Below are positions 2,467 to 25,461 of a DNA stretch of 64,000 nt, in pieces. The first letter of the stretch is position 1. Each line of letters begins with the position of its first letter. The stretch lies in sequence record OZ413489.1; one strand, written 5' to 3'. A program made the position numbers and the translations under genes. The notes under the pieces were generated by a model. That model made no database searches, was not told the origin of the DNA, and saw only the letters and a list, made by a program, of their open reading frames with translations. The DNA is from a phage.

Positions 2467-4896
2467 ATGAGCATGTGGTCGTTCGACTTTGAGTCATCCG
2501 GTTTGCTGGAAGACCCAGATCTTTATTATCACTGCGGCCTGTTTAAAGAGCTGAATAAGAACCGTTTTATGCTGTTCCTTCCTCTAAATGACCGCACACA
2601 CTACTCCGAGGAGGATATAGAAAAGGCTAAGAACTTCATTCTGGCAAAGAAAACTCTTTATAAAGATTTTGAAGTTCGCATAGCAGATTTTTCAGAGTTG
2701 GAAGGTTGGCTTACAGGAAATTCTGACTGGTCACCAACAGCTTTGAACTGCCATAACTGCTACAGTTATGACTTTATGCTGATGGAAAGATTATCTGGTA
2801 TTCATTTTGATATGTTCCGTGATCCTAAATGTATGGGGACTATCAACGATCACCAGGTTAACCTGTTTGATACGTTGGCGATGAGCCGAATCTTGTGGCC
2901 TGATCGCCCTTTACCAAAAGGTTGTCCGGACTCTGTATTCAACCCGGTTACTAAGAAAATGCAGCCTGTTGGTCCTCACGGCCTTATGGCATGGGGCTAC
3001 GCCCTTGGTAACCAGAAAGTTCAAATTGATGACTGGCGCGATCTTCCGTTGTGGAAGTATGTGGATCGTGTATTCGAGGACGTTATCATCCAGGAGCTGC
3101 TCTGGAAAGAGCTGGTAGCGGAATCAAAAGGTGTATTCTACGGCAAATCTGACATGCAGAACTTTATGTACGATCCGGCCAAAGAGAAGCCGAAAGGGTT
3201 CAAGAAGATCACCTGGAAGAACGCATTACGTCGAGGCATGCTGCAGCACTTCCTGATGGAGCTGCAGGCCCGTCAGGGTGTATACTTCGACATAGATGGA
3301 GCTATTGCTTTACGTGACCGTTGCGATGCGTGGATGAAAGAAATCGCTGATCGTGTTGAACCACAACTACCTTTAAAAGAGCTGTCAATGTCTCAGCGGC
3401 CCAAGTTCCCTGAAAAGCCGTTTAACCAAGACGGGACAATCTCTAATAATGGTTGGAAATGGTTAAAAGATAAGCTTGGCTATCCTGTAGACATGAGTGC
3501 TTTAGAGTTCAAAGCCCTGCCTAAGCGAGCATTTACCTCTACAGGAGATGTCAGCAAGATGGGGATAAAATGGTGTGAAGAGATGGGCTGCAAAGACCCC
3601 GATAAGATGGCTGATTTCTTGAGAGGCTATATTAAGGGCACCTCCACACCACAACCCTTACCTAAAGAGCTGATGGATCAGGCAATAAGTGATCTGCAGC
3701 AGAAGCGAATGCCTGACTGCAAGATACCTATGAAAATCAGCAATCAGGACGACATCAAGCGATACCTAATCAGTGCTGGTTGGCTCCCAACAATGTGGAG
3801 AACTAAAGATGTAACTAAAGACAGCAAGAAGAAAGCTTTACCTGATGCAGATGTTGATGCACGAGTATATGCATATATGGACGAGCTTTTGGAGTCAGAG
3901 TATTGTGACCTAATTATCAACTTCTGGAACAAAACTGATGCTAAGTTCCAGACAACCGTGCACAAGTTCCGAAGCTTTCCTAACTCCGAAAGGATTAAAA
4001 AGGAAGTATTCGGGAAAATACGTAGAAAAGCCAGGGCACTTATTACTTCTCCGCAACTGAAAGATACGTTTGGACACCTATGCCCAAATCTTGAAAAATT
4101 GAACGGAGAGATGGCTAAAGATATCGTCTTGTGGTTATCATTGCGAAACCGCAGATCGGTCCTTGATCCAATCAAGGAGGATAAGGTTGATACTGGTCTT
4201 CTTAATCACCCACGTTTGAAGATTGACCATAAGCTTCCTGCTAAAAGCTCTGGATTAACAAACACTTCCAGACAGAAACACAGTATTTGTGCAAACATGC
4301 CTAAACCATCTCCTAAAGTAGTTATGGGTAAAGAGATGCGTAGTCTGTGGGGTGTTCCTCCAGGATACTTTGAGATCGGTATTGACGGGTCCAACTTAGA
4401 GCAGCTCATCGGGGCTTGGGGTGCCTTTGAGTTCGACAACGGCTTGTATTATGATGTTGTAAGTAACGGAGACGCACACCAAAACAATGCTGAGGCATAT
4501 ACAAAAGTGGCAGGCAGAGAGGTGTCCCGTAACGACGGTAAACCTATCACGTATGGGGTTATGTACGGGGCACAAAAAGATAAAGTTGCAGATATGCTGG
4601 ACATCTCCCCAGAGTTGGGACAAAGGGTAATCGATGCACTCTGGGATGCCAACCCAGGTCTTAAGGGGCGCAAAGAGGATCTGGAGAAATTCTGGGAAGC
4701 AACAGGTAAGAAGTTTATCTACTCTTTTGATGGTCATGCTATCTGGACCCGATCTAAACACTCTTTACTTAATGCATACCAACAAAATGGCGGTGCATCG
4801 TTGTGTGACTTAGTTGGAATACTCATGCACCACCAGATGGTGAAGCGTGGGTGGTACGATGAAGGTGTTCGTCGTATTATTTATTACCATAAATAA
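2467..4896 (+). CDS. DNA polymerase, family A (T7 / Pol I type)
   Basis: 809 aa; N-terminal exo motif FDFESSG; motif A-like IGIDGSNLEQL; motif B-like KPITYGVMYGAQ. Confidence 0.85.
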   Translation: MSMWSFDFESSGLLEDPDLYYHCGLFKELNKNRFMLFLPLNDRTHYSEEDIEKAKNFILAKKTLYKDFEVRIADFSELEGWLTGNSDWSPTALNCHNCYSYDFMLMERLSGIHFDMFRDPKCMGTINDHQVNLFDTLAMSRILWPDRPLPKGCPDSVFNPVTKKMQPVGPHGLMAWGYALGNQKVQIDDWRDLPLWKYVDRVFEDVIIQELLWKELVAESKGVFYGKSDMQNFMYDPAKEKPKGFKKITWKNALRRGMLQHFLMELQARQGVYFDIDGAIALRDRCDAWMKEIADRVEPQLPLKELSMSQRPKFPEKPFNQDGTISNNGWKWLKDKLGYPVDMSALEFKALPKRAFTSTGDVSKMGIKWCEEMGCKDPDKMADFLRGYIKGTSTPQPLPKELMDQAISDLQQKRMPDCKIPMKISNQDDIKRYLISAGWLPTMWRTKDVTKDSKKKALPDADVDARVYAYMDELLESEYCDLIINFWNKTDAKFQTTVHKFRSFPNSERIKKEVFGKIRRKARALITSPQLKDTFGHLCPNLEKLNGEMAKDIVLWLSLRNRRSVLDPIKEDKVDTGLLNHPRLKIDHKLPAKSSGLTNTSRQKHSICANMPKPSPKVVMGKEMRSLWGVPPGYFEIGIDGSNLEQLIGAWGAFEFDNGLYYDVVSNGDAHQNNAEAYTKVAGREVSRNDGKPITYGVMYGAQKDKVADMLDISPELGQRVIDALWDANPGLKGRKEDLEKFWEATGKKFIYSFDGHAIWTRSKHSLLNAYQQNGGASLCDLVGILMHHQMVKRGWYDEGVRRIIYYHK

Positions 4897-14079: not shown

Positions 14080-14540
14080 GATTTCTAAAATGGATTTCCT
14101 CCTTTTGATATTTCACCGGGCCGGATATTTTAAAATTCTTAGAAAATCAGAAAATGGATCGAAAACTAAAATGGATTTTTCAGAGTAGGCGCGACAAGCT
14201 GAATAACTCATCCTATCGTTTGCACCATATTCCAGGCCACCATTATAGATTTCCCACACATGCTAACCTCCCTCTACTAGAACTTCCTCCACTTACCCTT
14301 GACCTTCTATGGTAACAATCTAACCGCTATCTTGAAGTTGCTGTGCAGCTTTCCAGGTACTCGATCTACTTTTCATTTCAGGGCTTGGATTTTCTGAAAA
14401 TTTTTCTCGATAAATTTCTCAGTACTCGATCTGTTTTTCGTTTTCTGAATCGGATTTTCTGGAAATCGTTCCGGCTCTCGACCTGAAATTTTTGGGGACG
14501 AAATCGATTTTTCGTTTTCAGAAATGGATTTTTAAAATTT
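14080..14540. repeat. iteron-like direct repeats (AAAATGGAT x4; about 35 bp TCGATCT...GGATTTTCTG unit x3)
   Basis: AAAATGGAT at about 14087, 14151, 14168, 14522; longer units at about 14358, 14422, 14501; AT-rich, no ORF. Confidence 0.6.
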
Positions 14541-14646
14541 CTATATGGGAATATTTTATGGGATACTGTTTTATAGGAAATTGTTACGGAGGGTAATTAG
14601 CGTGCTAATTAAATTTATTAAATGCGAGGAGTTCTCATTTAGAATT

Positions 14647-15986: not shown

Positions 15987-16015
15987 TTGACACGCTGCAA
16001 AATTCAAGTAAACTA
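15987..16015 (+). promoter_or_regulatory. sigma70-type promoter (TTGACA, -10 TAAACT)
   Basis: Upstream of the 16063 gene. Confidence 0.5.
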
Positions 16016-16062
16016 GGCACAAAAGGCGGGAATGTTTCCCGCCAACACGAAGGAAAAAGATC

Positions 16063-16458
16063 ATGAATAAAAACGTACGCCGCATCATGAACGAACTGGC
16101 AAACGATGAAAAAATTATTGATATGCATTTGGTCAACATTTGCCGCCGTTGTGTAACATATAACAACCGCGCCGCAAAAGCGCGTGAGATGAACGCAAAA
16201 GGCACCTTAAAGCCCTTTCAGGTGGTTGTAAAATCTATGACCAGTGCAGCAGGCCAGGCGCATGACCACAACAACGGGAGCACTAATATTGATCCATCTT
16301 ACGTAATGAAACGGATCCGGACTTGCAAGAATAAAGAGCAGGTGTATAACGTCATAGATTGGCTGGACTCCCTGGGTGACGTGGTTTACAATAGGTTTTC
16401 TGCAGCTATTGAAATTCAGTTAGACAGGTTGGACGGGAAAGTACTGAAAACTTACTGA
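16063..16458 (+). CDS. hypothetical protein
   Basis: 131 aa ORF with AGGAAAAAGA RBS. Confidence 0.5.
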   Translation: MNKNVRRIMNELANDEKIIDMHLVNICRRCVTYNNRAAKAREMNAKGTLKPFQVVVKSMTSAAGQAHDHNNGSTNIDPSYVMKRIRTCKNKEQVYNVIDWLDSLGDVVYNRFSAAIEIQLDRLDGKVLKTY

Positions 16459-16460
16459 GT

Positions 16461-16506
16461 TTATTTTTAGATGGCCTTGACTCCAGGGCCATCAATAAAG
16501 TAAACT
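16461..16506 (+). repeat. conserved stem-loop element, copy A
   Basis: TTTTTAGATGGCCTTGACTCCAGGGCCATCAATAAAGTAAAC; 7 bp stem GATGGCC/GGCCATC; immediately 3' of stop codon. Confidence 0.6.
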
Positions 16507-16538
16507 AATCCCAGTTAAGCGAAAAAGGAGGCTTGAAG

Positions 16539-16658
16539 ATGAGCACTACACGCCAGCACACAAAGGTAACTATTATCGTTTGCATCATTGGTTATATCCT
16601 GGCGCAAATGTTGATGGGTAGCGCTAACGGTGTCGCAAAATTTTTCTTAAACTTTTAA
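16539..16658 (+). CDS. small hydrophobic peptide (39 aa)
   Basis: ATG ORF below cutoff with strong RBS AAAAAGGAGG; predicted single TM. Confidence 0.35.
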   Translation: MSTTRQHTKVTIIVCIIGYILAQMLMGSANGVAKFFLNF

Positions 16659-16687
16659 TTGACAAGCTAACTTAGATCAGTATACTA
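16659..16687 (+). promoter_or_regulatory. sigma70-type promoter (TTGACA, -10 TATACT)
   Basis: Upstream of the 16736 gene. Confidence 0.5.
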
Positions 16688-16735
16688 AACACATAAACGG
16701 GAAAACTTCCCAGAACACCAAAAGGAGAAAACATT

Positions 16736-17086
16736 ATGAATACTTCCATCACTATGACCGCCGAAGAAAAAGCCCTGCAGATCGCCGCTCTGAAAAAACA
16801 GATTGCAGAACTTGAAGACAAGATCGACAATTTTGAAATCGACGAAGACAAATACGACGATAAATATGATGAATGGTTGGACGAGATCTACGGCGAAATT
16901 ATGATCGGAAACATTTCTTTTCTTCCGTCGCGTATCCTCAAGGAGCTAGATCCTATCGCTTACCGCTGCGGATTTAGCGACTACATCGACAGCCTGGATA
17001 TTGAGGACGATGAAGAATACCAGGAATTGCAGACAGAGCTTGAAGAAGTGAAAGAAGAGCTTGCAGAACTGGAAGAAAACGAGTAA
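16736..17086 (+). CDS. hypothetical acidic coiled-coil protein
   Basis: 116 aa, Glu/Asp-rich, heptad-like; RBS AAAGGAGA. Confidence 0.5.
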   Translation: MNTSITMTAEEKALQIAALKKQIAELEDKIDNFEIDEDKYDDKYDEWLDEIYGEIMIGNISFLPSRILKELDPIAYRCGFSDYIDSLDIEDDEEYQELQTELEEVKEELAELEENE

Positions 17087-17097
17087 GATTATTTTTA

Positions 17098-17135
17098 GAT
17101 GGCCTTGACTCCAGGGCCATCAATAAAGTAAACTT
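17098..17135 (+). repeat. conserved stem-loop element, copy B
   Basis: Near-identical to copy A; immediately 3' of stop codon. Confidence 0.6.
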
Positions 17136-17175
17136 TATACTGTTAACACTGAACTAATGCATAGGAGTTAAAACC

Positions 17176-17421
17176 ATGGCAGCACTAATCACCAAATATT
17201 ATGCCCCTACCAACACCAAAAGCGCCCGTATCATGGTAAAAGGCTTCGGACGTAAAAAGGTTTACACTTGGGATTATTCCCTAGACATGGAAGACAACTA
17301 CACCAACGCGATGACCGATTTTATTAATGAACTAAATAAGCAGATCTTAACCAATTATAAGGTGACCGACATCGCCTATGTTGGGGAAGGTGGGATCTGT
17401 TTTGTCGGTATTGTCAAATAA
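17176..17421 (+). CDS. hypothetical protein
   Basis: 81 aa ORF with TAGGAG RBS. Confidence 0.5.
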   Translation: MAALITKYYAPTNTKSARIMVKGFGRKKVYTWDYSLDMEDNYTNAMTDFINELNKQILTNYKVTDIAYVGEGGICFVGIVK

Positions 17422-17431
17422 GCTGTTTTTT

Positions 17432-17470
17432 CGGTGGTCCTGGTGGCAGGGCCATCTATAAAGATAGTTT
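17432..17470 (+). repeat. conserved stem-loop element, degenerate copy D
   Basis: GGTGGTCCTGGTGGCAGGGCCATCTATAAAGATAG; shares the GGGCCATC...ATAAAG core. Confidence 0.4.
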
Positions 17471-17496
17471 ATTAACACCATGAAAGGAGAAAGTAC

Positions 17497-17850
17497 ATGA
17501 TCAGCGGGGCTAGTTTTATTATTGGCGCTATTGCTACAGCTTTAATTGTAAACAAGATCCAGGATAAAAAGGAAAGAGGAAGTACCGCCCTTGCAGAATA
17601 TCCATTTTGGACATTCAACGATAACGAAGATTATATTATAAAGTATAAAAATAAAGAAGGTGACCAAGTAACACCGCGACCGATCCCGGCTTACAAGATG
17701 CAGGAAACACTATACCGCTTGGAGGCAGGGGGCGCAAAAATTGTGGACTTTTGGGGATACGATCACACAGATCAGGAAGTTATAAAGCGCCGTATCCGGG
17801 CTATTCAGGCCAATATTGAAGTTAGCAAGGGGGGAATATATGAAGATTAA
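17497..17850 (+). CDS. hypothetical protein
   Basis: 117 aa ORF with AAAGGAGA RBS. Confidence 0.5.
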   Translation: MISGASFIIGAIATALIVNKIQDKKERGSTALAEYPFWTFNDNEDYIIKYKNKEGDQVTPRPIPAYKMQETLYRLEAGGAKIVDFWGYDHTDQEVIKRRIRAIQANIEVSKGGIYED

Positions 17851-18037
17851 TTTTGAGAAAATTGTAAAGCGATCTCATGATTCCGAAGAGCTGCCGGAAC
17901 GCCGCCAGCGTAACAATAAACTGAATAAGCCAAAAAGATTTGGGAAGATCTGGCGGAATCATTATGATCGTAAATTGCCGGGCCTCCTTTTGGAACGTGA
18001 ACGGCAGGCGGAACGATACCGCCACAAAGGCAACTAA
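17840..18037 (+). CDS. hypothetical basic protein
   Basis: Track ORF 17816-18037 trimmed to ATG after AAGGGGGGA RBS. Confidence 0.45.
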   Translation: MKINFEKIVKRSHDSEELPERRQRNNKLNKPKRFGKIWRNHYDRKLPGLLLERERQAERYRHKGN

Positions 18038-18045
18038 CAACCAAC

Positions 18046-18072
18046 GCCCCGCCATCGTGCGGGGCTTTTTAT
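18046..18072 (+). terminator. rho-independent terminator
   Basis: GCCCCGC-CATCGT-GCGGGGC followed by TTTTTATTT. Confidence 0.65.
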
Positions 18073-18195
18073 TTCTACCCTACGAATAGCGCCCCTGGTT
18101 GGCCCCACAACGCCCTAAAAGCCCCCTACCCATGCAATCCCATTTCTTAACCTGAAAACATCGTCAAAGGCTGTTTTAAAGCGTTAAAAATATTG

Positions 18196-18224
18196 TTGAC
18201 ATCTAAAATATTCTAGATATACTA
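18196..18224 (+). promoter_or_regulatory. sigma70-type promoter (TTGACA, -10 TATACT)
   Basis: Upstream of the 18259 gene. Confidence 0.55.
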
Positions 18225-18258
18225 ATCACATCAAAGCGAGAAGTAAGGAGTAAACGCC

Positions 18259-18519
18259 ATGCGTAAATTAAAAAATTTTGATAAAGTTGATATTGTCCTG
18301 AATAATTTTTACTACTGCAATAACAAGGCCGTTTGGTGGCGTGATAGTTCCACCGATAAAGTCAAGGCGCGCTTTCTCCAGGGGCACTGGCAAGGCCGCC
18401 CAGTGATTAAAATCATGGGGCAATTGGTAGCGTTTAAAAATTGCCGCCGTGTTGATGACGTTGAAGAGATTTTAAACATTTTGCGCCACAATAATTTAAA
18501 AAATAGTGTTGACAAGTAA
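18259..18519 (+). CDS. hypothetical protein
   Basis: 86 aa ORF with TAAGGAG RBS. Confidence 0.5.
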   Translation: MRKLKNFDKVDIVLNNFYYCNNKAVWWRDSSTDKVKARFLQGHWQGRPVIKIMGQLVAFKNCRRVDDVEEILNILRHNNLKNSVDK

Positions 18520-18537
18520 ATCTCAATAAGTATAATT
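18509..18537 (+). promoter_or_regulatory. sigma70-type promoter (TTGACA, -10 TATAAT)
   Basis: Consensus hexamers; -35 overlaps upstream stop. Confidence 0.55.
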
Positions 18538-18593
18538 AAAAACACAGGCGGGAAAACTTCCCGCCACTAACAAAGAAAACAGGAGAAAATATC

Positions 18594-19217
18594 ATGACCA
18601 CCGTTAACATTACCACAGGTTACAATTTATCTTTCGACGTGCTGACCGACGAACAAAAAGAAAAAGCCGTGGAAATGGTCCGCGAAAGAGAAGAACACAG
18701 CGGGGATAACTTTTTTGCAGAAAGTGTAATTGAGTACTATAAAGAATATGTTTTTCCAGAGTACGGCCTTGAAGATACCGATGTACATTGGTCAGGCTTT
18801 TGGTGCCAGGGTGACGGCGCGTCAATCAGTGCGGAAAACGTGGATTTAGAAAAATTCTTGCGTAAAGTCAAGTCTCTGACTAAATTCCGCTCAATTCGTC
18901 ACTTGTTCGGCACAATGCACGATGGCGAGTTATCCGCAAGTGTTGAGCGTGATCCATATAGCCGCTATAGTCACGAAAACACTGTAAACGGATACATCGA
19001 TACTACATGGCTAGACCTGACCACCAAACAAGAAAACAAAGTGGAAGATCTGGAAGAGCTGATCACCGAGACGGTACGGGAGTTATCCCGCAAGGTTTAC
19101 GTAGACCTGGAGGAGGCCTATCTTGAACAATTCACCGCCGAAAACTTGATCGGCCTTATCGAGGCCAATGATTGGCGGTTTGATGTCGATGAACACGGTA
19201 AGATGACTTTTTCATAA
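18594..19217 (+). CDS. hypothetical protein
   Basis: 207 aa ORF with CAGGAGAAA RBS. Confidence 0.5.
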   Translation: MTTVNITTGYNLSFDVLTDEQKEKAVEMVREREEHSGDNFFAESVIEYYKEYVFPEYGLEDTDVHWSGFWCQGDGASISAENVDLEKFLRKVKSLTKFRSIRHLFGTMHDGELSASVERDPYSRYSHENTVNGYIDTTWLDLTTKQENKVEDLEELITETVRELSRKVYVDLEEAYLEQFTAENLIGLIEANDWRFDVDEHGKMTFS

Positions 19218-19225
19218 ATAAAGTG

Positions 19226-19254
19226 TTGCAATAACCTAAAAACCTGCTATATTA
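19226..19254 (+). promoter_or_regulatory. sigma70-type promoter (TTGCAA, -10 TATATT)
   Basis: Upstream of the 19306 gene. Confidence 0.45.
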
Positions 19255-19305
19255 AAACTCAAGGGGCAAGACGTTTGCCCCACACAAAACAAAGAGGTAA
19301 ACATT

Positions 19306-19686
19306 ATGAAAAACACTACTAAAGCTATTGACACCGTTATGTTTAACCTGGTTACATTCCGTGAAGATATGAAAGATCTTCCACGTGAAACAGTGTGCGA
19401 TCACATTGAAAACTATCGCAAACTAATCAAAGAGTTGCCTTTAAAACGTGACCAGTATGCGGCTAACGCTATGCTTAACGCCATGATCAAAAAGATGATT
19501 CAGTGTGATTTAACTCTGGCCTATGATTATGCAGGTGGTCGTTTTGCAGTATACAATCAGCCCGTGCCTGGTATGAGCACCACCGAAGAATTGCACGCGT
19601 TAAATCTGAAACAAGATGTATGGGATAACATGCCCCGCGTGGTGGTGTGGGCAGAAAGCGGAAAGATTTACGGCGATAATTTTTAA
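19306..19686 (+). CDS. hypothetical protein
   Basis: 126 aa ORF with AAGAGG RBS. Confidence 0.5.
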   Translation: MKNTTKAIDTVMFNLVTFREDMKDLPRETVCDHIENYRKLIKELPLKRDQYAANAMLNAMIKKMIQCDLTLAYDYAGGRFAVYNQPVPGMSTTEELHALNLKQDVWDNMPRVVVWAESGKIYGDNF

Positions 19687-19696
19687 TCAGGTAACA

Positions 19697-19722
19697 GGCG
19701 GCATATTTGCCGCCTTATTGTT
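19697..19722 (+). terminator. rho-independent terminator
   Basis: GGCGGCA-TATT-TGCCGCC followed by TTATTGTT. Confidence 0.55.
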
Positions 19723-19750
19723 AAACAGAACTGCAAAAGAGGTACATAGA

Positions 19751-20122
19751 ATGGAATTTATTATTTTGGCTGTAGTAGTTGCCTTGTTCAACGCCTGGAT
19801 CGCTGGCAAGATAGGTAGATCCGCTTTTCTATGGTTTGTTATATCTATTTTCCTGGGAGTGGTTGCAACTATTGTATTGGTTATCCTTGCAATTGTTGAC
19901 AAGGGCGATAATAGAAAGGGTAAAGTGTTTTCCGACCTGTATGACGCACAAACGTTTGTCAACGCCTATTATAGTGATCTTCCAGTCTCCCTACGCTGCA
20001 GCCTGGCACAACAGGTTTTTGATGAGGCTAAAACCAGAGACCAAGCCCATGAGATATGTTTAACTGAAGCGGATCGCCTATTTGAGAGGAATAGAAAATA
20101 TGTGGACCAGCCGTTTAAATAA
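19751..20122 (+). CDS. hypothetical membrane protein
   Basis: Track ORF 19616-20122 trimmed to ATG after AAGAGG RBS; two hydrophobic segments. Confidence 0.5.
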   Translation: MEFIILAVVVALFNAWIAGKIGRSAFLWFVISIFLGVVATIVLVILAIVDKGDNRKGKVFSDLYDAQTFVNAYYSDLPVSLRCSLAQQVFDEAKTRDQAHEICLTEADRLFERNRKYVDQPFK

Positions 20123-20321
20123 CGCCACGTTAATTAATCCCTTTAGTGAAGATTTGAAGCCAGCCGCCTGGCGTGACGGATTCAATAACGAACGCTTTAT
20201 TTTCAGGCCTGATCTTGAGGAATTTTATAACAATGGATCGAACAACAGCGGAGATAATTTTTCTTGTGGTGTGCGTGGTGATAGGACTCCTGGGGGCCAT
20301 TGTAAACCACGTCACTACTAA
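20100..20321 (+). CDS. hypothetical protein (alternative to the overlapping 20173-20358 frame)
   Basis: Track ORF 20082-20321 trimmed to ATG; frame choice unresolved. Confidence 0.3.
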   Translation: MWTSRLNNATLINPFSEDLKPAAWRDGFNNERFIFRPDLEEFYNNGSNNSGDNFSCGVRGDRTPGGHCKPRHY

Positions 20322-20341
20322 CAGGAGGGAAGGGGGAGACG

Positions 20342-20461
20342 ATGACAACCAAAGATAAGCCATGCGCTGATAAGGTGCGCCGTGTTATGGTATGGCTTGA
20401 GATTATCGCCCTTGAAATATTGTTAGGCGTAGGGATGTACTTTATCGCTGTAAGTAACTAA
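20342..20461 (+). CDS. small hydrophobic peptide (39 aa)
   Basis: ATG ORF below cutoff with strong RBS AGGAGGGAAGGGGGAG; followed by terminator. Confidence 0.4.
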   Translation: MTTKDKPCADKVRRVMVWLEIIALEILLGVGMYFIAVSN

Positions 20462-20465
20462 GAGC

Positions 20466-20495
20466 GGCCCCCGATCATGGGGGCCTATCTTTTAA
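20466..20495 (+). terminator. rho-independent terminator
   Basis: GGCCCCC-GATCAT-GGGGGCC followed by T-rich run. Confidence 0.65.
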
Positions 20496-20599
20496 AAAAT
20501 TTTTCTTCCGGGGTGTTGCAATCCGGTCCGGAATGTGGATAATAACAATCAACGGGGAGCTAATCCCCACCACCACAAAAACCAGAAAGGAGAAACAAA

Positions 20600-20800
20600 A
20601 TGAGCAACAATATCCGCGTTATTAACTTCAAAAAAGAAGAAAAAATTGCCGTGCTGATTGACGGTCAAGAAATCTTCAAGGGCGACTATGAAGATCATCA
20701 AACGGCGATTAGTATCACTCGCGTGATTGGTTATCATAATTTCTACCCCCAAGGCGCTGAGGCAGCAGTTAAACGAATCAAAGAGATTGTAGGCCTGTAA
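20600..20800 (+). CDS. hypothetical protein
   Basis: 66 aa ORF with AAGGAGAAA RBS. Confidence 0.55.
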   Translation: MSNNIRVINFKKEEKIAVLIDGQEIFKGDYEDHQTAISITRVIGYHNFYPQGAEAAVKRIKEIVGL

Positions 20801-20812
20801 AATTTATTTTTA

Positions 20813-20850
20813 GATGGCCTTGACTTCAGGGCCATCGATAAAGTAAATTT
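20813..20850 (+). repeat. conserved stem-loop element, copy C
   Basis: TTTTTAGATGGCCTTGACTTCAGGGCCATCGATAAAGTAAA; immediately 3' of stop codon. Confidence 0.6.
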
Positions 20851-20893
20851 AAACCCTGTTAAAATACCACGCAGTTAACAAGGAGTGATAGAC

Positions 20894-21193
20894 ATGTTTA
20901 TCCAGGCTAATAATCTTTATTTCTTTGATGGTCAGATCGTAGATGGTGTGGAAGTGGAGATCACCGGGTGCCCTGGCGGTCAGGCTATGACTTTTCGGAA
21001 TAATGCCTTTGATGATTCTCATATCGTTATAAGAATGGAAGTTACGAAGCTGGACGACAAGAAAACACTTATTGACTATTCTGTGAAAGATCATCCAGAC
21101 TACCGCATGATCCATGGTGATTTGTGCATTGTTGACCGTGACAAGGTGGGCGGCATTGTGATCGCTATTGTGAACGATGTTTTCTCAAACTAA
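20894..21193 (+). CDS. hypothetical protein
   Basis: Track ORF 20885 (GTG) trimmed to ATG after AAGGAG RBS. Confidence 0.5.
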   Translation: MFIQANNLYFFDGQIVDGVEVEITGCPGGQAMTFRNNAFDDSHIVIRMEVTKLDDKKTLIDYSVKDHPDYRMIHGDLCIVDRDKVGGIVIAIVNDVFSN

Positions 21194-21561: not shown

Positions 21562-21599
21562 GGCCCCTAGCAGGGCCTGCAGCAATATAATCACATAAA

Positions 21600-21630
21600 G
21601 GCCATGCGGTTGCATGGCCTTTATTATTTT
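21600..21630 (+). terminator. rho-independent terminator
   Basis: GGCCATGC-GGTT-GCATGGCC followed by TTTATTATTTT. Confidence 0.7.
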
Positions 21631-21707: not shown

Positions 21708-22100
21708 AGAGTTGTCGAGGGGGAGGCCCCCAATCGTTGACCAGATAGATAGGAGTTAAAATCATGGCTATTGTTACCGCTGGCTATCTTCAAAGATGCG
21801 GAAGCAAAACAACGCCGGATCTCAATACATGAGATCATCAACCTTAACGCTGGAGGCACACCATACCGCCCAGGACCTGGCCGTGAGATGGACAATACGC
21901 TAGCGATCCTGAAGATACGCCGTAAACGGTCCTCCCTTACTCTGGACTCATTACACACAATGCAGCCTCCGTTCCAGGTGACCGGGAAACGGATCGCCAG
22001 GTCCTGGACAAAGGCCAATGATCGGACCGTATAAATAAAAGTGTTTTGGTACTGATTTTGGGGTTGACTTGTTCGGCCCCTTTTGCTATTCTTATTAAAC

Positions 22101-22168: not shown

Positions 22169-22197
22169 TTGACATCTGCCATGGGGTGGGGTAACAT
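22169..22197 (+). promoter_or_regulatory. sigma70-type promoter (TTGACA-17-TAACAT)
   Basis: Upstream of the 22252 gene. Confidence 0.45.
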
Positions 22198-22251
22198 TTA
22201 TCTTGAAGGGGCAAAAGTGCCCACACAACAACCAAGAGAGAGGAAAACACT

Positions 22252-22848: not shown

Positions 22849-22867
22849 TACAACAAGGTGCACGGTC

Positions 22868-22893
22868 AGGGGCTTAAAGCCCCTTTCTTTTTG
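22868..22893 (+). terminator. rho-independent terminator ending the rightward block
   Basis: AGGGGC-TTAAA-GCCCCT followed by TTCTTTTTG. Confidence 0.65.
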
Positions 22894-23772
22894 TCTCCTC
22901 TTTTCCTACCACAAATGGCCCCGCCTGGCAAATGGAATAATCAACAAGCCAGCAATTAACCCCACTGTACAAACATACATATAAAATAACTATTGCATAA
23001 TTTTTCATTGTGTGGTAGCAGTGCCATTTTTACACGTTTTTCCTTCCAAAATTGCACGTAATGCAGCATTTGCACAAAATTTAACCTGATGCATATCTTC
23101 AATAGCTTGTCAACAACTAAAAATCTTTATAAGTCATACACTTACATAACTACAAAAACGTTTTCTACGTGAAAAATCGAGTATAACTATAGCCGCCAGA
23201 TCTCAGAATTTACGTACGCTCGCCATTCTATAGCCTGCTAAGCATTTATTCCAACCATAGAATAACGGAATAGTCAATACCTGCATAAAATAATTATTCG
23301 TGTAAACTGCATAACATAAATCGGCCCAGGTGTCAACATTTTTCGTAAACAGTCTGGAATTGTCACGTTAGGTTACCATAAGCAGAGAAATCTTTAGTCG
23401 TCTAATGTTTACTGTACATTACTATACTGACTGGAATCATTAGATGACTAAGAGAAAGATAAGAAATAATTAATAATGTAATTATTTTACCTGTAACAAT
23501 AAGGCAACTATGCAAACGAATGGCATGGCGCGACGGAGTCGCGACATAATATAAAAGCAGTAACCATCACCCCCGTGATAGTTTGTCTGCAAACTATTAA
23601 TCAGATCATAGTTGCCTTGTATTTAGTTAATCATGACATGACAAGCAAGGCAACTATAGATCTGCTAATAGTTGCCCTGCTTTTATATTATGTCATGCTA
23701 ATTATAATCAGTGCGATTATTGTCATGTATAATTATTGTCATGCAAACGAATGGCATGGCTGATTATCGGTG

Positions 23773-23859
23773 TGTAAACAGTCAATCATGTAAATGGTTA
23801 GCATGTGAACAATCAGGAATGTAAACAATCCAGTGTGTAAACTAATAGGTGTGTAAAAG
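23773..23859. repeat. iteron array: six TGTRAAMW octamers at about 16 bp spacing
   Basis: Copies start near 23773, 23789, 23804, 23820, 23836, 23852. Confidence 0.65.
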
Positions 23860-24001
23860 TGTCATGTTGTGTCAGTTAGGTCACATTATGTCAGACAAGT
23901 TTTTCTCCTCTTTGTCAAGTGCTGCATGAAAAATTTACAAGCTTGTATGGTAGCATTTTTGCGGCCCTGTTTACATTCAGTAATGTATGTATAATCCTTG
24001 T

Positions 24002-24165
24002 TGTGTGGGCGTTTAGACGTCTAGACGGTTGGAAGTCCACAGGTCAATATCTAATCTATCGGCTGCTAACTATATCCCACACATGTGTGGGCGTTTAGAC
24101 GTCTAGACGGTTGGAAGTCCACAGGTCAATATCTAATCTATCGGCTGCTAACTATATCCCACACA
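24002..24165. repeat. perfect tandem duplication of an 82 bp unit with 8 bp terminal inverted repeats
   Basis: Unit TGTGTGGG...CCCACACA at 24002-24083 and 24084-24165; internal palindromes AGACGTCT / GTCTAGAC. Confidence 0.8.
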
Positions 24166-25461
24166 AATAGTAAGAAATATGATTGTTATATGCGTAAACT
24201 GTAACTCATGTTATCAATCCCTGTATGGATCGCCAGTGGTGCGCATAATAGGTATTATGTTAAATTGCCCGTAATGATAACAGTTCTCACAATGATAGGT
24301 ATTCTCATTCATCCACACAAAATAGGTTGCAAATGTTGTGCCACTGTGTGAACGGCCTGGCCTATTAATTTCTCTCACTGCCTCGATATTTGAGAATTGT
24401 TATAAGAATGAGAAGTATTCCCATTCCGTCCGCCTGGCAGCACTCCTGTAGGTCCTGCAAGGACTCTAGCTGAAAGCTAGACCCTTCGGGCCTCCCTGTA
24501 GGTCAGGTCAAAATCGTGGTAGAATTGGGCCTGTTCAGATATTTCTGGCTGACTCTTCAGGTCTGTGTGGGAAAAGCCAACCTCTCCGGCGGGGCAGGGG
24601 GTCATGACGGGAAAATTGCAGGTCAATTAAAAAATTTACGTGGTGTATGAAGCGCTCTTCAGGTAAGGCATGTATTATGGGATGAAACCCTCTTCAGGCA
24701 ATGATATTTGTGGGTGTGATATTTGCTGGAAAGCCAGATATGACGGGACTCCCGGCGGGGATGGGGTAGTACAGACAGGGAAAATATGAGAATGTAGTTG
24801 GGGAAATTGATCAGACAGGTAGAGTATGGAATATGTTACAAGTATGTTAAATATGGAGGTTGAATATCTGTAGGATTTGTGTGTAAAATCAAAGACTTAA
24901 GGGGTGTTGTGGTATTTTCTATAAATAATTCAAGTTTAATAGGCAATATTTGTCTCTATCCGCTTTGTGTGGTAAACAGATTCAGATTAGATTGGTTTAC
25001 AAGTGTATACATAATATACAAATTAAAGATACAAGAAACCCCCCTCCCCCTTCGGCTACCATTCACCTTTTCCTCTGACTGGTACTTAAACACTTATTCA
25101 GACTCTTCAGGTTATCACCCATATATCATATGGCAGTGACTGGTGTCCTCCGGCCCCTCTTTCGTCACCCGTCCGCTTCGCCATGCTAATGCCATAGCCA
25201 ATGGTTCGGTTGTTCACTCTGTTCACTCAGGTGTATCTCCATACCCCTTCAAACCGAAGAGAACAGAAAACCCGAATTACTCGGTAAAAGAAAAGAGAAG
25301 AACTTAATTTTATCAGGATAGGCAAGAATGTCAAGGCATGACTGCTCACTAAACAAGCAAACAGTCATGTGTGGAAGGTAAGTGATTGTGGTGGTGGGAA
25401 ATTTAGTTGAAAGATGTGTTATAGGTGCTCCCAGCACTTTAGCCGGGTAGCTAATTGTGTG

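Follow-up and report, generated by a model that had tools for sequence, protein, structure and literature searches.

The RNase III signals of phage T7 early RNA (R0.3, R0.5, R1 and R1.1) lie between the cistrons of a polycistronic transcript made by the host RNA polymerase, and their cleavage has been demonstrated; the cuts were reportedly placed at 890, 1468, 3138 and 5887 by Dunn & Studier in 1983. An RNase III substrate is, in general terms, a double-helical hairpin of about two turns, that is, about 20 bp (PMC1540722), and RNase III sites of E. coli are enriched in intergenic regions inside transcripts (PMC6212723). The rationale offered for an asymmetric internal loop is that the enzyme then cuts one strand only and a hairpin remains at the 3' end. 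In the distal box, U.G at the second position (db2) is "stringently" required, and any distal-box substitution lowers reactivity in vitro at least 5-fold; the sequence of the tetraloop, in contrast, is not critical.

REP elements are host-encoded, intercistronic imperfect palindromes, present in E. coli in hundreds of copies, that protect upstream mRNA from 3' exonucleases. The PeSL cassettes of the T4-type phages RB49 and phi1 combine promoters that are identical to the σ70 consensus, and very strong, with short G-tract/C-tract hairpins that have been shown to lower downstream expression (PMC2839356, PMC4122927). The element described here, from a Vequintavirus (rV5-like) phage of E. coli, is most likely a previously unannotated example of a known signal type, and the T7 signals are the ones that it resembles most specifically.

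A repeated hairpin behind the stop codons of early genes

A repeat search of the window (the whole 64-kb stretch of phage DNA that was analysed) returns four copies (c1 to c4) of a 49-base repeat, all of them within one 4.4-kb early gene block (Table 1). The repeat family is real: its 24-nt core, GATGGCCTTGACTCCAGGGCCATC, recurs exactly in c1 and c2 and with one mismatch in c4 (0 matches are expected in shuffled sequence), and the repeat search lists the other 49-nt copies at 98% (c2), 92% (c4) and 67% (c3, 17421-17469). Neither fuzzy searches nor an unfiltered covariance-model search turn up an additional copy in the 64 kb; the complete genome of the closest relative also has the four, and no other in its 135 kb. 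The model scores its own copies at 77-84 bits (c1, 82.7; c2, 81.5; c3, 77.2; c4, 77.9). No Rfam 15 family reaches its gathering score on the element, the only overlap being with rhtB (23 bits against the 55 needed, E 2.9).

Each copy starts at, or 1 nt past, the stop codon of the upstream gene, and all seven flanking genes belong to PHROG families without known function. Every copy is intercistronic, with a promoter upstream and no terminator in between, and, judged from this arrangement, would sit inside a transcript. Only four junctions of the genome carry a copy, so the element is not a general feature of this phage's operons.

Table 1. Coordinates of the repeat copies, their substructures and the neighbouring transcription signals
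Feature	Position	Strand	Remarks
Copy c1, full hairpin	16458-16506	+	between gene A (16063-16458) and 39-aa ORF (16539-16658); stop TGA 16456-16458; -25.1 kcal/mol, z -6.4
Copy c2, full hairpin	17086-17134	+	between gene B (16736-17086) and gene C (17176-17421); stop TAA 17084-17086; -21.1 kcal/mol, z -5.5
Copy c3, hairpin	17417-17473	+	between gene C and gene D (17497-17850); stop TAA 17419-17421; 14-bp lower helix, lacks TTGAC; -29.4 kcal/mol, z -8.6
Copy c4, full hairpin	20801-20849	+	between gene E (20600-20800) and gene F (20894-21193); stop TAA 20798-20800; -24.7 kcal/mol, z -6.4
Lower helix, c1	16458-16467/16497-16506	+	predicted fold
Upper helix (10 bp) and tetraloop	16470-16493 (c1), 17098-17121 (c2), 17433-17456 (c3), 20813-20836 (c4)	+	
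Internal loop, 5' side	U-A 16468-16469 (c1); U-C 17431-17432 (c3)	+	
Internal loop, 3' side, N-A-U	16494-16496 (c1), 17122-17124 (c2), 17457-17459 (c3), 20837-20839 (c4)	+	predicted region of RNase III single-strand cut
σ70-like TTGACT-N18-TAAACT	16477-16506 (c1), 17105-17134 (c2), 20820-20849 (c4, TAAATT)	+	9/12 matches
Consensus early promoter TTGACA-N16-TAAACT	15987-16014	+	starts operon with c1
Second promoter	16659-16686	+	upstream of c2 and c3
Promoter TTGCAA-N16-GATAAT	20516-20543	+	starts operon with c4
First intrinsic terminator downstream of c1-c3	18046-18065	+	GC hairpin and T-run
Next terminator after the c4 operon promoter	21595-21624		
628-bp cassette	16507-17134	+	39-aa ORF, promoter, gene B, one repeat copy

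Folded as RNA of the + (mRNA) strand, all four copies form one and the same two-helix hairpin of 49-57 nt: an AU-rich lower helix of 10-14 bp, a 2x3 internal loop, a GC-rich upper helix of 10 bp and a tetraloop, with 24 base pairs in c3 and 20 in each of the other three. The T-run 5' of the stem pairs with the A-rich 3' flank, which is how the second helix arises. The internal loop reads U-A or U-C on its 5' side and N-A-U on its 3' side, where A46 and T47 (U47 in RNA) are invariant. Folding energies run from -21 to -29 kcal/mol (z -5.5 to -8.6), and none of 200 shuffled sequences is as stable. The - strand folds more weakly (-9 to -17 kcal/mol, z about -2; for c3, -29.4 on the + strand versus -9.2 on the -), and the G.U pairs of the hairpin pair on the sense strand only, being C.A mismatches on the opposite one. 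The initial annotation had recognized the four repeats and their location directly after stop codons, and both hold up (its coordinates were a few bases off, inconsistently between copies); the 7-bp stem that it described, however, is part of a two-helix hairpin of 20-24 bp, and the copy that it called degenerate, c3, is as RNA the most stable hairpin, every pair being kept through compensatory and wobble changes.

Conservation points to the same structure. Fifteen genomes supply 37 distinct sequences. In this set 98.6% of the cells at paired positions are indeed paired, as against at most 57% with slid partners; both partners of four lower-helix pairs change in a compensatory way, and three pairs of the upper helix alternate between Watson-Crick and G.U, which supports the predicted hairpin. 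RNAalifold independently gives the same structure, and the c3 orthologs display C-G to U-A and G.U to A-U switches. The element is conserved across the genus: variation between genomes is limited to tetraloop positions 3-4, the first base of the 3' side of the internal loop and the base of the helix, while the spacer and synonymous sites flanking the hairpins vary freely. A conserved motif, (C/T)(A/T)GTTAA, also lies 6-8 nt downstream of the hairpin.

Likeness to the T7 early signals

Folded in the identical manner, the T7 early intergenic hairpins have about two helical turns, with a GC-rich upper stem of 9-10 bp, a tetraloop and a 2x3 internal loop, as does the element; the loop bases follow the same rule (5' U-A/C, 3' N-A-U), and a non-Watson-Crick pair lies beside the cut region (the predicted one, in the element) in both. 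The correspondence extends to individual copies: the hairpin of the T7 0.7/1 gap has the loop 5'UA/3'AAU of c1 and c2, and those upstream of 0.3 and between 1 and 1.1 have the 5'UC/3'UAU of c3. (A GCAA loop, U12:G27, C13:G26 and U.C at pb4 identify the 1/1.1 hairpin as R1.1 in the published numbering.) T7 and this phage are also alike in having near-identical paralogous copies per genome, and minor σ70 promoters (here possible ones) in the same gaps. On the other hand, this phage, a myovirus, is not related to T7, its element has other stem sequences, and the element's lower helix is longer and perfectly paired where that of T7 is interrupted.

The match is specific. A covariance model built from the element alone makes exactly four matches in 13.2 kb of T7 early sequence, and all four are RNase III signals, matched on the sense strand, full-length and in register, though each match is weak individually (E 0.34-7.9; 8-14 bits, compared with 77-84 for the element's own copies). 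A descriptor without stem sequence matches only the four copies and three T7 signals, with 0 matches in the rest of the phage genome, 50 kb of PVP-SE1, 940 kb of unrelated viral loci and 20 shuffled sets; it was written after both the element and the T7 sets had been seen, so that its specificity alone is informative, and not its matches to those sets.

Several structural features expected of an RNase III substrate are present. The helices amount to about two turns in every copy, and the 2x3 loop is asymmetric in all four. Counted from the loop pair to the tetraloop there are 11 positions (the 10-bp upper helix plus a non-Watson-Crick loop pair), as in R1.1, a count that is valid only if the cut falls in the loop; the pair adjoining the predicted cut is non-Watson-Crick. 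U28.G37 is invariant in c1, c2 and c4 at the position and in the orientation of db2, the U.G wobble of the T7 signals; c3 has C-G there. Proximal-box position pb2 is A-U (G.U in c3) and pb4 is A.A, A.G or A-U (C.U in c3, as in R1.1), so that the antideterminants G-C and C-G are absent from proximal-box positions 2 and 4. The departures from T7 R1.1 are G-C at pb3 and, in all four copies, C-G instead of A-U at db1; in c3 there are also the C-G at db2 and the G.U at pb2.

The best reading of the element, to which we assign a probability of roughly 0.58, is as an intercistronic RNase III-type processing and stability signal of early polycistronic mRNA, acting in the sense strand. Host RNA polymerase would read through from the upstream σ70 promoters, each copy folding just past the upstream stop codon; host RNase III would bind the roughly two-turn helix and, limited by the internal loop, cut only once, on the 3' side and at or beside N-A-U. 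By analogy with T7, cuts are predicted at about 16496|16497 (±1 nt), 17124|17125, 17459|17460 and 20839|20840. A protective hairpin would then form the 3' end of the upstream cistron, and the downstream one would become a separate RNA, uncoupling the stabilities of neighbouring early genes. The initial annotation had proposed an RNA processing or a protein-binding site: the fold and the T7 match favour processing, and the strong strand asymmetry disfavours a protein site on duplex DNA. Counting against an RNase III signal, the lower helix would melt transiently under a ribosome terminating at the stop codon. The invariant "AC" of the tetraloop is also left unaccounted for by RNase III, since loop sequence is not critical for the enzyme.

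Overlapping promoter-like matches, rival readings and recombination

Copies c1, c2 and c4 carry TTGACN-N18-TAAAYT, and possibly a weak σ70 promoter is overlaid on each; c3 has CTGGTG in place of the -35. (The initial annotation saw no properly spaced -10; a -10-like hexamer is in fact present, and its N18 spacing falls within the usual 16-18-nt rule.) A PeSL-type cassette could be made of these parts: a σ70 early promoter (UP-like T-tract, TTGACN, 18-nt spacer, TAAAYT) would drive the downstream gene, and the overlapping stem-loop would attenuate or insulate read-through, as in RB49 and phi1. The layout is indeed that of PeSLs, with which the initial annotation had compared the element by position: a stop codon in an AT-rich tract, -35 and -10 overlapped by a stem-loop with G.T pairs, then a Shine-Dalgarno sequence and ATG, in an early region with many genes of unknown function, where recombination between copies generates cassette indels and chimeric copies; the PeSL definition includes stem-loops over the -35. 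Further observations speak for a promoter. The loop A-C that completes TTGAC is invariant in c1, c2 and c4, and the next two positions vary at all three loci, the variable base being the least-constrained sixth -35 position; the c2 orthologs keep TAAACT unchanged while their 5' arm varies and loses pairs; the consensus promoter at 15987 likewise has TAAACT for its -10; and the minor E. coli promoters B and C of T7 share intergenic gaps with RNase III signals.

Nevertheless, a PeSL-type role is unlikely as an account of the element. The function common to the four copies is not promoter activity, because c3 lacks the -35 and yet its hairpin is the most stable, the best conserved and one that has evolved by compensatory changes. 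Where PeSL promoters are consensus, the match here is 9/12 with the least favourable spacer, and comparable matches are common by chance (46 found versus 29 expected); the hairpin, at 20-24 bp in two helices, covers all of the promoter-like stretch. This phage does have true PeSL-like cassettes, but they form a class of their own in the neighbouring gaps, with a short GC hairpin after TTGACA-N16-TAnnnT, and the strong promoters near the copies are all TTGACA-N16 followed by a 5' hairpin that c1-c4 do not have. A promoter role also fails to explain why the spacer and the upstream arm are conserved, and it leaves the G.U pairs and the strand asymmetry unaccounted for; the termination part lacks a U-tract. 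Intrinsic termination as such is rejected: the element resembles a terminator in being a GC-rich hairpin right after a stop codon, but has its T-run 5' of the stem, no U-tract follows on either strand (as noted initially) and the 3' flank is AAUAAAG, UAUAAAG or GAUAAAG. A terminator scan of both strands did not report the hairpin sites, and the true terminators of the region (18046, 19696, 20466, 21595) look different.

A stable, conserved sense-strand hairpin right after stop codons within operons might also work without RNase III, either as a REP-like barrier to 3' exonucleases for the upstream cistron after cleavage elsewhere, or as the site of a phage or host RNA-binding protein controlling the neighbouring genes. 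Conservation that reaches the unpaired A46, U47, loop A-C and downstream motif speaks for this reading, and REP hairpins too are repeated imperfect palindromes transcribed between cistrons. This is nonetheless quite improbable, in that the specific T7-like architecture and the internal-loop bases are left unexplained and no candidate binding protein has been identified. Direct translational occlusion is unlikely because 25-45 nt lie between the end of the hairpin and the next Shine-Dalgarno sequence; and unlike REP, the element is limited to four copies and to this phage genus, has another consensus and is without a match in 5,426 E. coli genomes. That it should act as DNA, whether as a palindromic operator bound by a dimeric regulator, as a cruciform or as a site dedicated to recombination or mobility, is very improbable indeed. 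The element is an inverted repeat with a -35-like hexamer at its centre, but the strand asymmetry of c3 and the turning of G.U into C.A argue against a cruciform or a symmetric double-stranded site, and two-sided compensatory changes are not expected of protein half-sites. Nor is it a dispersed mobile element, since neither E. coli nor other phage genera have it.

The copies are demonstrably points of recombination (hybrid copies; at least two or three independent cassette indels), for which sequence identity suffices and no dedicated function is required. The deletions between copies for which the initial annotation advised looking do exist: phages magaca and ECP32 and one IMG/VR contig lack the 628-bp cassette, and each of these three genomes has a hybrid copy, with the left flank of c1 and the right flank of c2, on a different background. 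Loss or gain of the cassette has repeatedly been mediated by the repeats; as DNA, the near-identical copies act as homologous-recombination substrates by which gene cassettes are added or removed. A dual role that combines these aspects with the preferred RNase III reading is conceivable but rather unlikely. As DNA, c1, c2 and c4 would be weak σ70 promoters; as RNA, the element would be the RNase III signal. Transcripts from a copy's own promoter would start past the hairpin and escape processing, read-through transcripts would be cut, and the repeats would serve as portable cassette junctions, the T7-like architecture having arisen independently in, or been transferred to, an unrelated myovirus lineage. 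The mRNA of a downstream gene would then exist in primary and processed forms of different stabilities.

A hairpin repeated between early genes

A repeat search of the window returns a single family of four 49-nt copies (c1 to c4; see the table), whose 24-nt core is present three times, with no more than one mismatch, where shuffled sequences predict zero occurrences. Fuzzy searches of the window find no fifth copy; nor does an unfiltered covariance model, which scores the four copies at 77-83 bits and its next match in the window at 16 bits, and in the complete 135-kb genome of phage MaxTheCat the same model recovers the four copies only. A family of four, a core unexpected in shuffles and searches that add nothing to it together confirm the repeated element proposed in the initial annotation.

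All copies begin at the stop codon of the upstream gene or one base past it, and end 25-45 nt ahead of the next Shine-Dalgarno sequence. The small early genes around them form a + strand array and all lack a known function; three classes of gap can be distinguished in this array: promoter plus hairpin, intrinsic terminator, and the element, which occupies four gaps. Promoters at 15987 and 16659 and a terminator at 18046 bound c1-c3, and a promoter at 20516 and a terminator at 21595 bound c4; all four copies are therefore intercistronic inside predicted operons.

Features of the window, with the internal-loop bases of the element and of T7 hairpins
Feature	Coordinates	Strand	Description	5' loop	3' loop	Predicted cut (about)
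c1	16458-16506	+	repeat family	UA	AAU	16496|16497
c2	17086-17134	+	repeat family, 98%	UA	AAU	17124|17125
c3	17421-17469	+	repeat family, 67%	UC	UAU	17459|17460
c4	20801-20849	+	repeat family, 92%	UA	GAU	20839|20840
T7 0.7/1 gap			T7 hairpin	UA	AAU	
T7 upstream of 0.3 and 1/1.1 gap			T7 hairpins	UC	UAU	
Motif after c1	16512-16518		CAGTTAA			
Motif after c2	17140-17147		CTGTTAAC			
Motif after c3	17471-17476		ATTAAC (counterpart)			
Motif after c4	20856-20862		CTGTTAA			
Promoter + short GC hairpin cassettes	15987-16043, 16659-16713, 18509-18565, 19226-19281, 20516-20572, 22169-22230					
Intrinsic terminators in some gaps	18046, 19696, 20466, 21595					
Terminator-like hairpin	22060-22092		GGGGTTGACTTGTTCGGCCCC + TTTT			
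Direct repeats	14347-14532		three, about 47-57 nt			
Gene-free gap	14189-14601		413 nt			
Stretch without convincing ORF	22849-24178		1.3 kb			
Long hairpin	23601-23664	+	26 pairs, -28.3 kcal/mol			
Partner structure of long hairpin	23637-23700	-				
Tandem duplication	24002-24165		82-nt unit, perfect			

The + strand RNAs of the four copies fold on an identical plan: a 10-bp lower helix (14 bp in c3), then an asymmetric internal loop (2 nt 5', 3 nt 3'), a 10-bp upper helix and a tetraloop. Their free energies are -21.1 to -29.4 kcal/mol (z -5.5 to -8.6, with no shuffle as low), which places them among the most stable local folds of the 64 kb despite a G+C content of about 37%; the reverse-strand folds are weaker (-9.2 to -16.9 kcal/mol, z about -2). 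The single 7-bp stem originally described was thus too small: the T-run upstream of it forms one side of the lower helix (the 5' arm), and the A-rich ATAAAGTAAAC downstream forms the other. Copy c3, which had been called degenerate, has lost TTGAC, yet it keeps all of its pairs and forms the most stable hairpin of the four. The judgment that this is not a canonical terminator stands: neither strand has a U-tract, and the T-run belongs to the second helix.

Comparison of 52 copies (37 distinct sequences, from 15 genomes) bears on the fold itself. Among the 37 distinct sequences, standard pairs fill 98.6% of the cells, as against 35-57% with slid partners; four lower-helix pairs vary on both sides (G-C/A-U/G.U, U-A/C-G, U-A/G.U/A-U and A-U/U-A), three upper-helix pairs are Watson-Crick in some sequences and G.U in others, and RNAalifold, given no structure as input, predicts the same structure. 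Most of the compensatory differences separate paralogous copies and therefore represent few independent events; among genomes, c3 orthologs too change C-G to U-A and G.U to A-U. Every G.U pair, including one invariant U.G in each helix, is valid on the sense strand only. Within the element, ortholog variation is confined to tetraloop positions 3-4, the first 3' internal-loop base and, in c2, the foot of the 5' arm; upstream synonymous sites and the downstream spacer vary freely. The pairing, the sense-only G.U pairs and the confinement of variation indicate, on comparative grounds, that selection maintains an RNA structure on the mRNA strand, and they count against a duplex-DNA palindrome or cruciform; these, and a DNA operator, were rejected for the strand asymmetry and the G.U pairs.

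A short motif lies 6-8 nt 3' of the hairpins, with a counterpart after c3. It is invariant across c2 and c4 orthologs, and could be the start region of a possible promoter or a second RNA signal.

Resemblance to the RNase III signals of T7

What might such a hairpin do? We consider it probable, at roughly 0.58, that the element is an RNase III processing signal of T7 type in early mRNA, predicted here by analogy for an unrelated phage group and with side properties like those of the promoter-early stem-loop (PeSL) cassettes of T4-type phages. Read-through early transcripts would fold into the hairpin directly past the stop codon, and host RNase III would cut once, in the 3' strand of the internal loop, leaving the upstream cistron with a hairpin that protects its 3' end and freeing the downstream cistron as a separate RNA. 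What the analysis demonstrates is the fold, its strand, its conservation and context, and the resemblance to T7; passage of transcription through the element and the cut are inferred from these. E. coli RNase III substrates have a helix of about two turns, with at least 11 bp separating the cut from the tetraloop, and internal loops confine cleavage to one strand, so that a protective 3' hairpin remains (PMC1540722; PMC3867540). In E. coli, sites of the enzyme are over-represented in the intergenic parts of transcripts (PMC6212723).

When the early intergenic gaps of T7 are folded by the procedure used for c1-c4, the hairpins upstream of gene 0.3 and in the 0.4/0.5, 0.7/1 and 1/1.1 gaps each have a 2x3 internal loop, as does the element, and above it an upper stem of 9-10 bp and a tetraloop or pentaloop. 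The bases of the internal loops coincide: those of c1 and c2 with the T7 0.7/1 loop, those of c3 with the loops upstream of 0.3 and in the 1/1.1 gap. U19, A46 and U47 are invariant in the element. The T7 cuts, reportedly at 890, 1468, 3138 and 5887 (Dunn & Studier, 1983), would fall at the last U of N-A-U in all four hairpins; RNase III sites are not annotated as features in the T7 records NC_001604 and V01146. Only the 1/1.1 hairpin is tied to the literature by published numbering, which identifies it as R1.1 (GCAA loop, U12:G27, C13:G26). R1.1 has U.C at the proximal-box position adjoining the scissile bond; the element likewise has a non-Watson-Crick pair beside its predicted cut, in c3 a C.U as in R1.1. 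The element's second proximal-box pair is A-U, at a position where G-C or C-G prevents binding, and in c1, c2 and c4 the invariant U.G falls precisely at the second distal-box pair, where U.G is "stringently" required. Unlike the T7 boxes, the element has G-C at the third proximal-box pair and C-G at the first distal-box pair, and c3 has C-G at the second.

Applied without filters to the 6.6-kb early region of T7, on both strands, a covariance model made from the element alone gave exactly four matches. These are the four T7 signals, each recovered from the sense strand, in register and over its whole length. Because the scores reach only 8-14 bits (E 0.34-7.9), the weight rests on the coincidence of location. 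A descriptor free of stem sequence (5' loop U[A/C]; 3' loop N-A-U; apical loop of 3-5 nt; upper stem of 9-11 bp, fully paired, with at least four G-C pairs; at least five of six lower pairs) matched the four copies and three T7 signals, and nothing else: there were no matches in the remaining MaxTheCat genome, 50 kb of PVP-SE1, 940 kb of unrelated viral loci and 20 shuffled sets. It was written with both sets already seen, and only its specificity is evidence.

If the prediction holds, T7-style RNase III processing of early mRNA would reach a large unrelated group of myoviruses, and the common loop bases (5' U-A/C, 3' N-A-U) would be a recurrent recognition feature that RNase III site predictors could usefully include. 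It offers a specific, testable function for a non-coding element conserved in over 120 sequenced rV5-like phages, including many that are in use or proposed for biocontrol and therapy; the hairpin could be used as a small module for RNA processing or insulation.

Promoter-like sequences and the PeSL comparison

Is the element also a promoter? The initial annotation saw no properly spaced -10, wrongly: a promoter scan gives TTGACT-N18-TAAACT (TAAATT in c4), with 9 of 12 matches, and the consensus promoter at 15987 likewise has TAAACT as its -10. It is possible, at somewhat short of even odds, that a weak promoter is overlaid on c1, c2 and c4 as an added role. The loop A-C that completes TTGAC is constant in these copies while the two positions that follow vary at all three loci, and in c2 the 5' arm changes and loses pairs with TAAACT unchanged; a promoter accounts for these two features better than RNase III does. 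As a function shared by the family, a promoter is opposed by the absence of a -35 in c3, by the weakness of a match of a type common here by chance (46 found, 29 expected), and by a spacer of the least favorable length, the strong nearby promoters all having 16 nt. T7 provides a precedent for a gap that holds both a minor E. coli promoter and an RNase III signal: in NC_001604 the annotated start of minor promoter C (3113) lies inside the 5' arm of the 0.7/1 hairpin and that of promoter B (1514) just past the 0.4/0.5 hairpin, so there, too, promoters and RNase III signals share gaps.

An analogy with PeSLs had also been drawn. By definition a PeSL has a stop codon upstream, set in AT-rich sequence, then consensus σ70 boxes, a stem-loop in one of five possible positions (one of them over the -35), a Shine-Dalgarno sequence and an ATG; PeSLs are found among genes of unknown function, and their copies have been shown to recombine (PMC2839356). 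The element shares the layout and the recombination behavior; it lacks the consensus promoter, and its hairpin is of another kind. The closest counterparts of PeSLs in this phage are instead the neighboring gaps of promoter plus short hairpin. In most gaps of 60-90 nt, a short GC hairpin lies about 10 nt past a consensus promoter, TTGACA-N16-TAnnnT. In the listed cassettes the -35 is TTGACA or TTGCAA and several have GGGAAAACTTCCC in common; their hairpins would lie at transcript 5' ends, and on the - strand T-runs come after them. Within the terminator-like hairpin at 22060-22092 is a TTGACT whose partner, a TG-extended -10 (TATTCT), lies 17 nt downstream; terminator and promoter overlap here.

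Distribution, recombination and other repeats

The region is shared, at 93-99% identity, with over 110 complete genomes of E. coli phages of the rV5-like group (Vequintavirus), MaxTheCat being nearest (98.6%). BLAST finds the element in 121 records, all of Vequintavirus type, at about three detectable places per record. Seventeen of these records (MG0656xx; stated host Campylobacter jejuni), 92-100% identical to the region of the E. coli Vequintavirus, are labelled Campylobacter phage, probably through mislabelling or because the assemblies are contaminants. A host-derived or dispersed mobile element was rejected on this distribution and on zero matches in E. coli genomes. A wider family with a different stem was rejected as well: of 106 IMG/VR loci that have the T-run, TTGAC and ATAAAG at fixed spacing, only Vequintavirus contigs fold, and an exact-motif scan gave chance matches for the most part. 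In the sister genus Seunavirus, the first 50 kb of PVP-SE1 has no copy in the syntenic early operon, which is without the block of unknown-function genes; homologs of gene C (between c2 and c3) beyond the genus are in unrelated phages and uninformative for orthologous context.

The rV5 genome paper, which lists 33 promoters and 20 terminators, does not include the element, nor is it annotated in rV5-like genomes; the repeat_region of phage isim is a distinct, intragenic repeat. An Rfam search gave nothing significant, and no Rfam family exists for the element. Literature searches found neither a transcriptomic study of rV5-like phages nor a paper connecting them with RNase III. The rV5 record NC_011041 has a 285-nt "Rho-independent terminator" (4264-4548) that is the entire CDS gp191 and looks like an annotation error.

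The suggestion that deletions between copies be sought in variants proved fruitful. The 628 bp between c1 and c2 are missing from phages magaca and ECP32 and from one IMG/VR contig, each of which has one hybrid copy with the left flank of c1 and the right flank of c2. The magaca flanks show no differences in 442 nt from full-length naswa, and the contig is nearest to the window; the three cassette-less genomes are not mutual nearest relatives, so that the event happened at least two or three times. Within a genome, c1 and c2 often have the same loop variant, which hints at possible gene conversion. The repeats are thus points of gene cassette loss and gain, of relevance to engineering and genome stability.

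The window holds other repeats. Three direct repeats, 70-74% identical and spaced by 65-74 nt, sit in a gene-free gap in an arrangement that looks iteron-like. The stretch without a convincing ORF, probably the "non-coding" box on the rV5 genome map, contains the long hairpin and the tandem duplication; the duplicated unit starts with TGTGTGGG and finishes with CCCACACA, and therefore has terminal inverted repeats.
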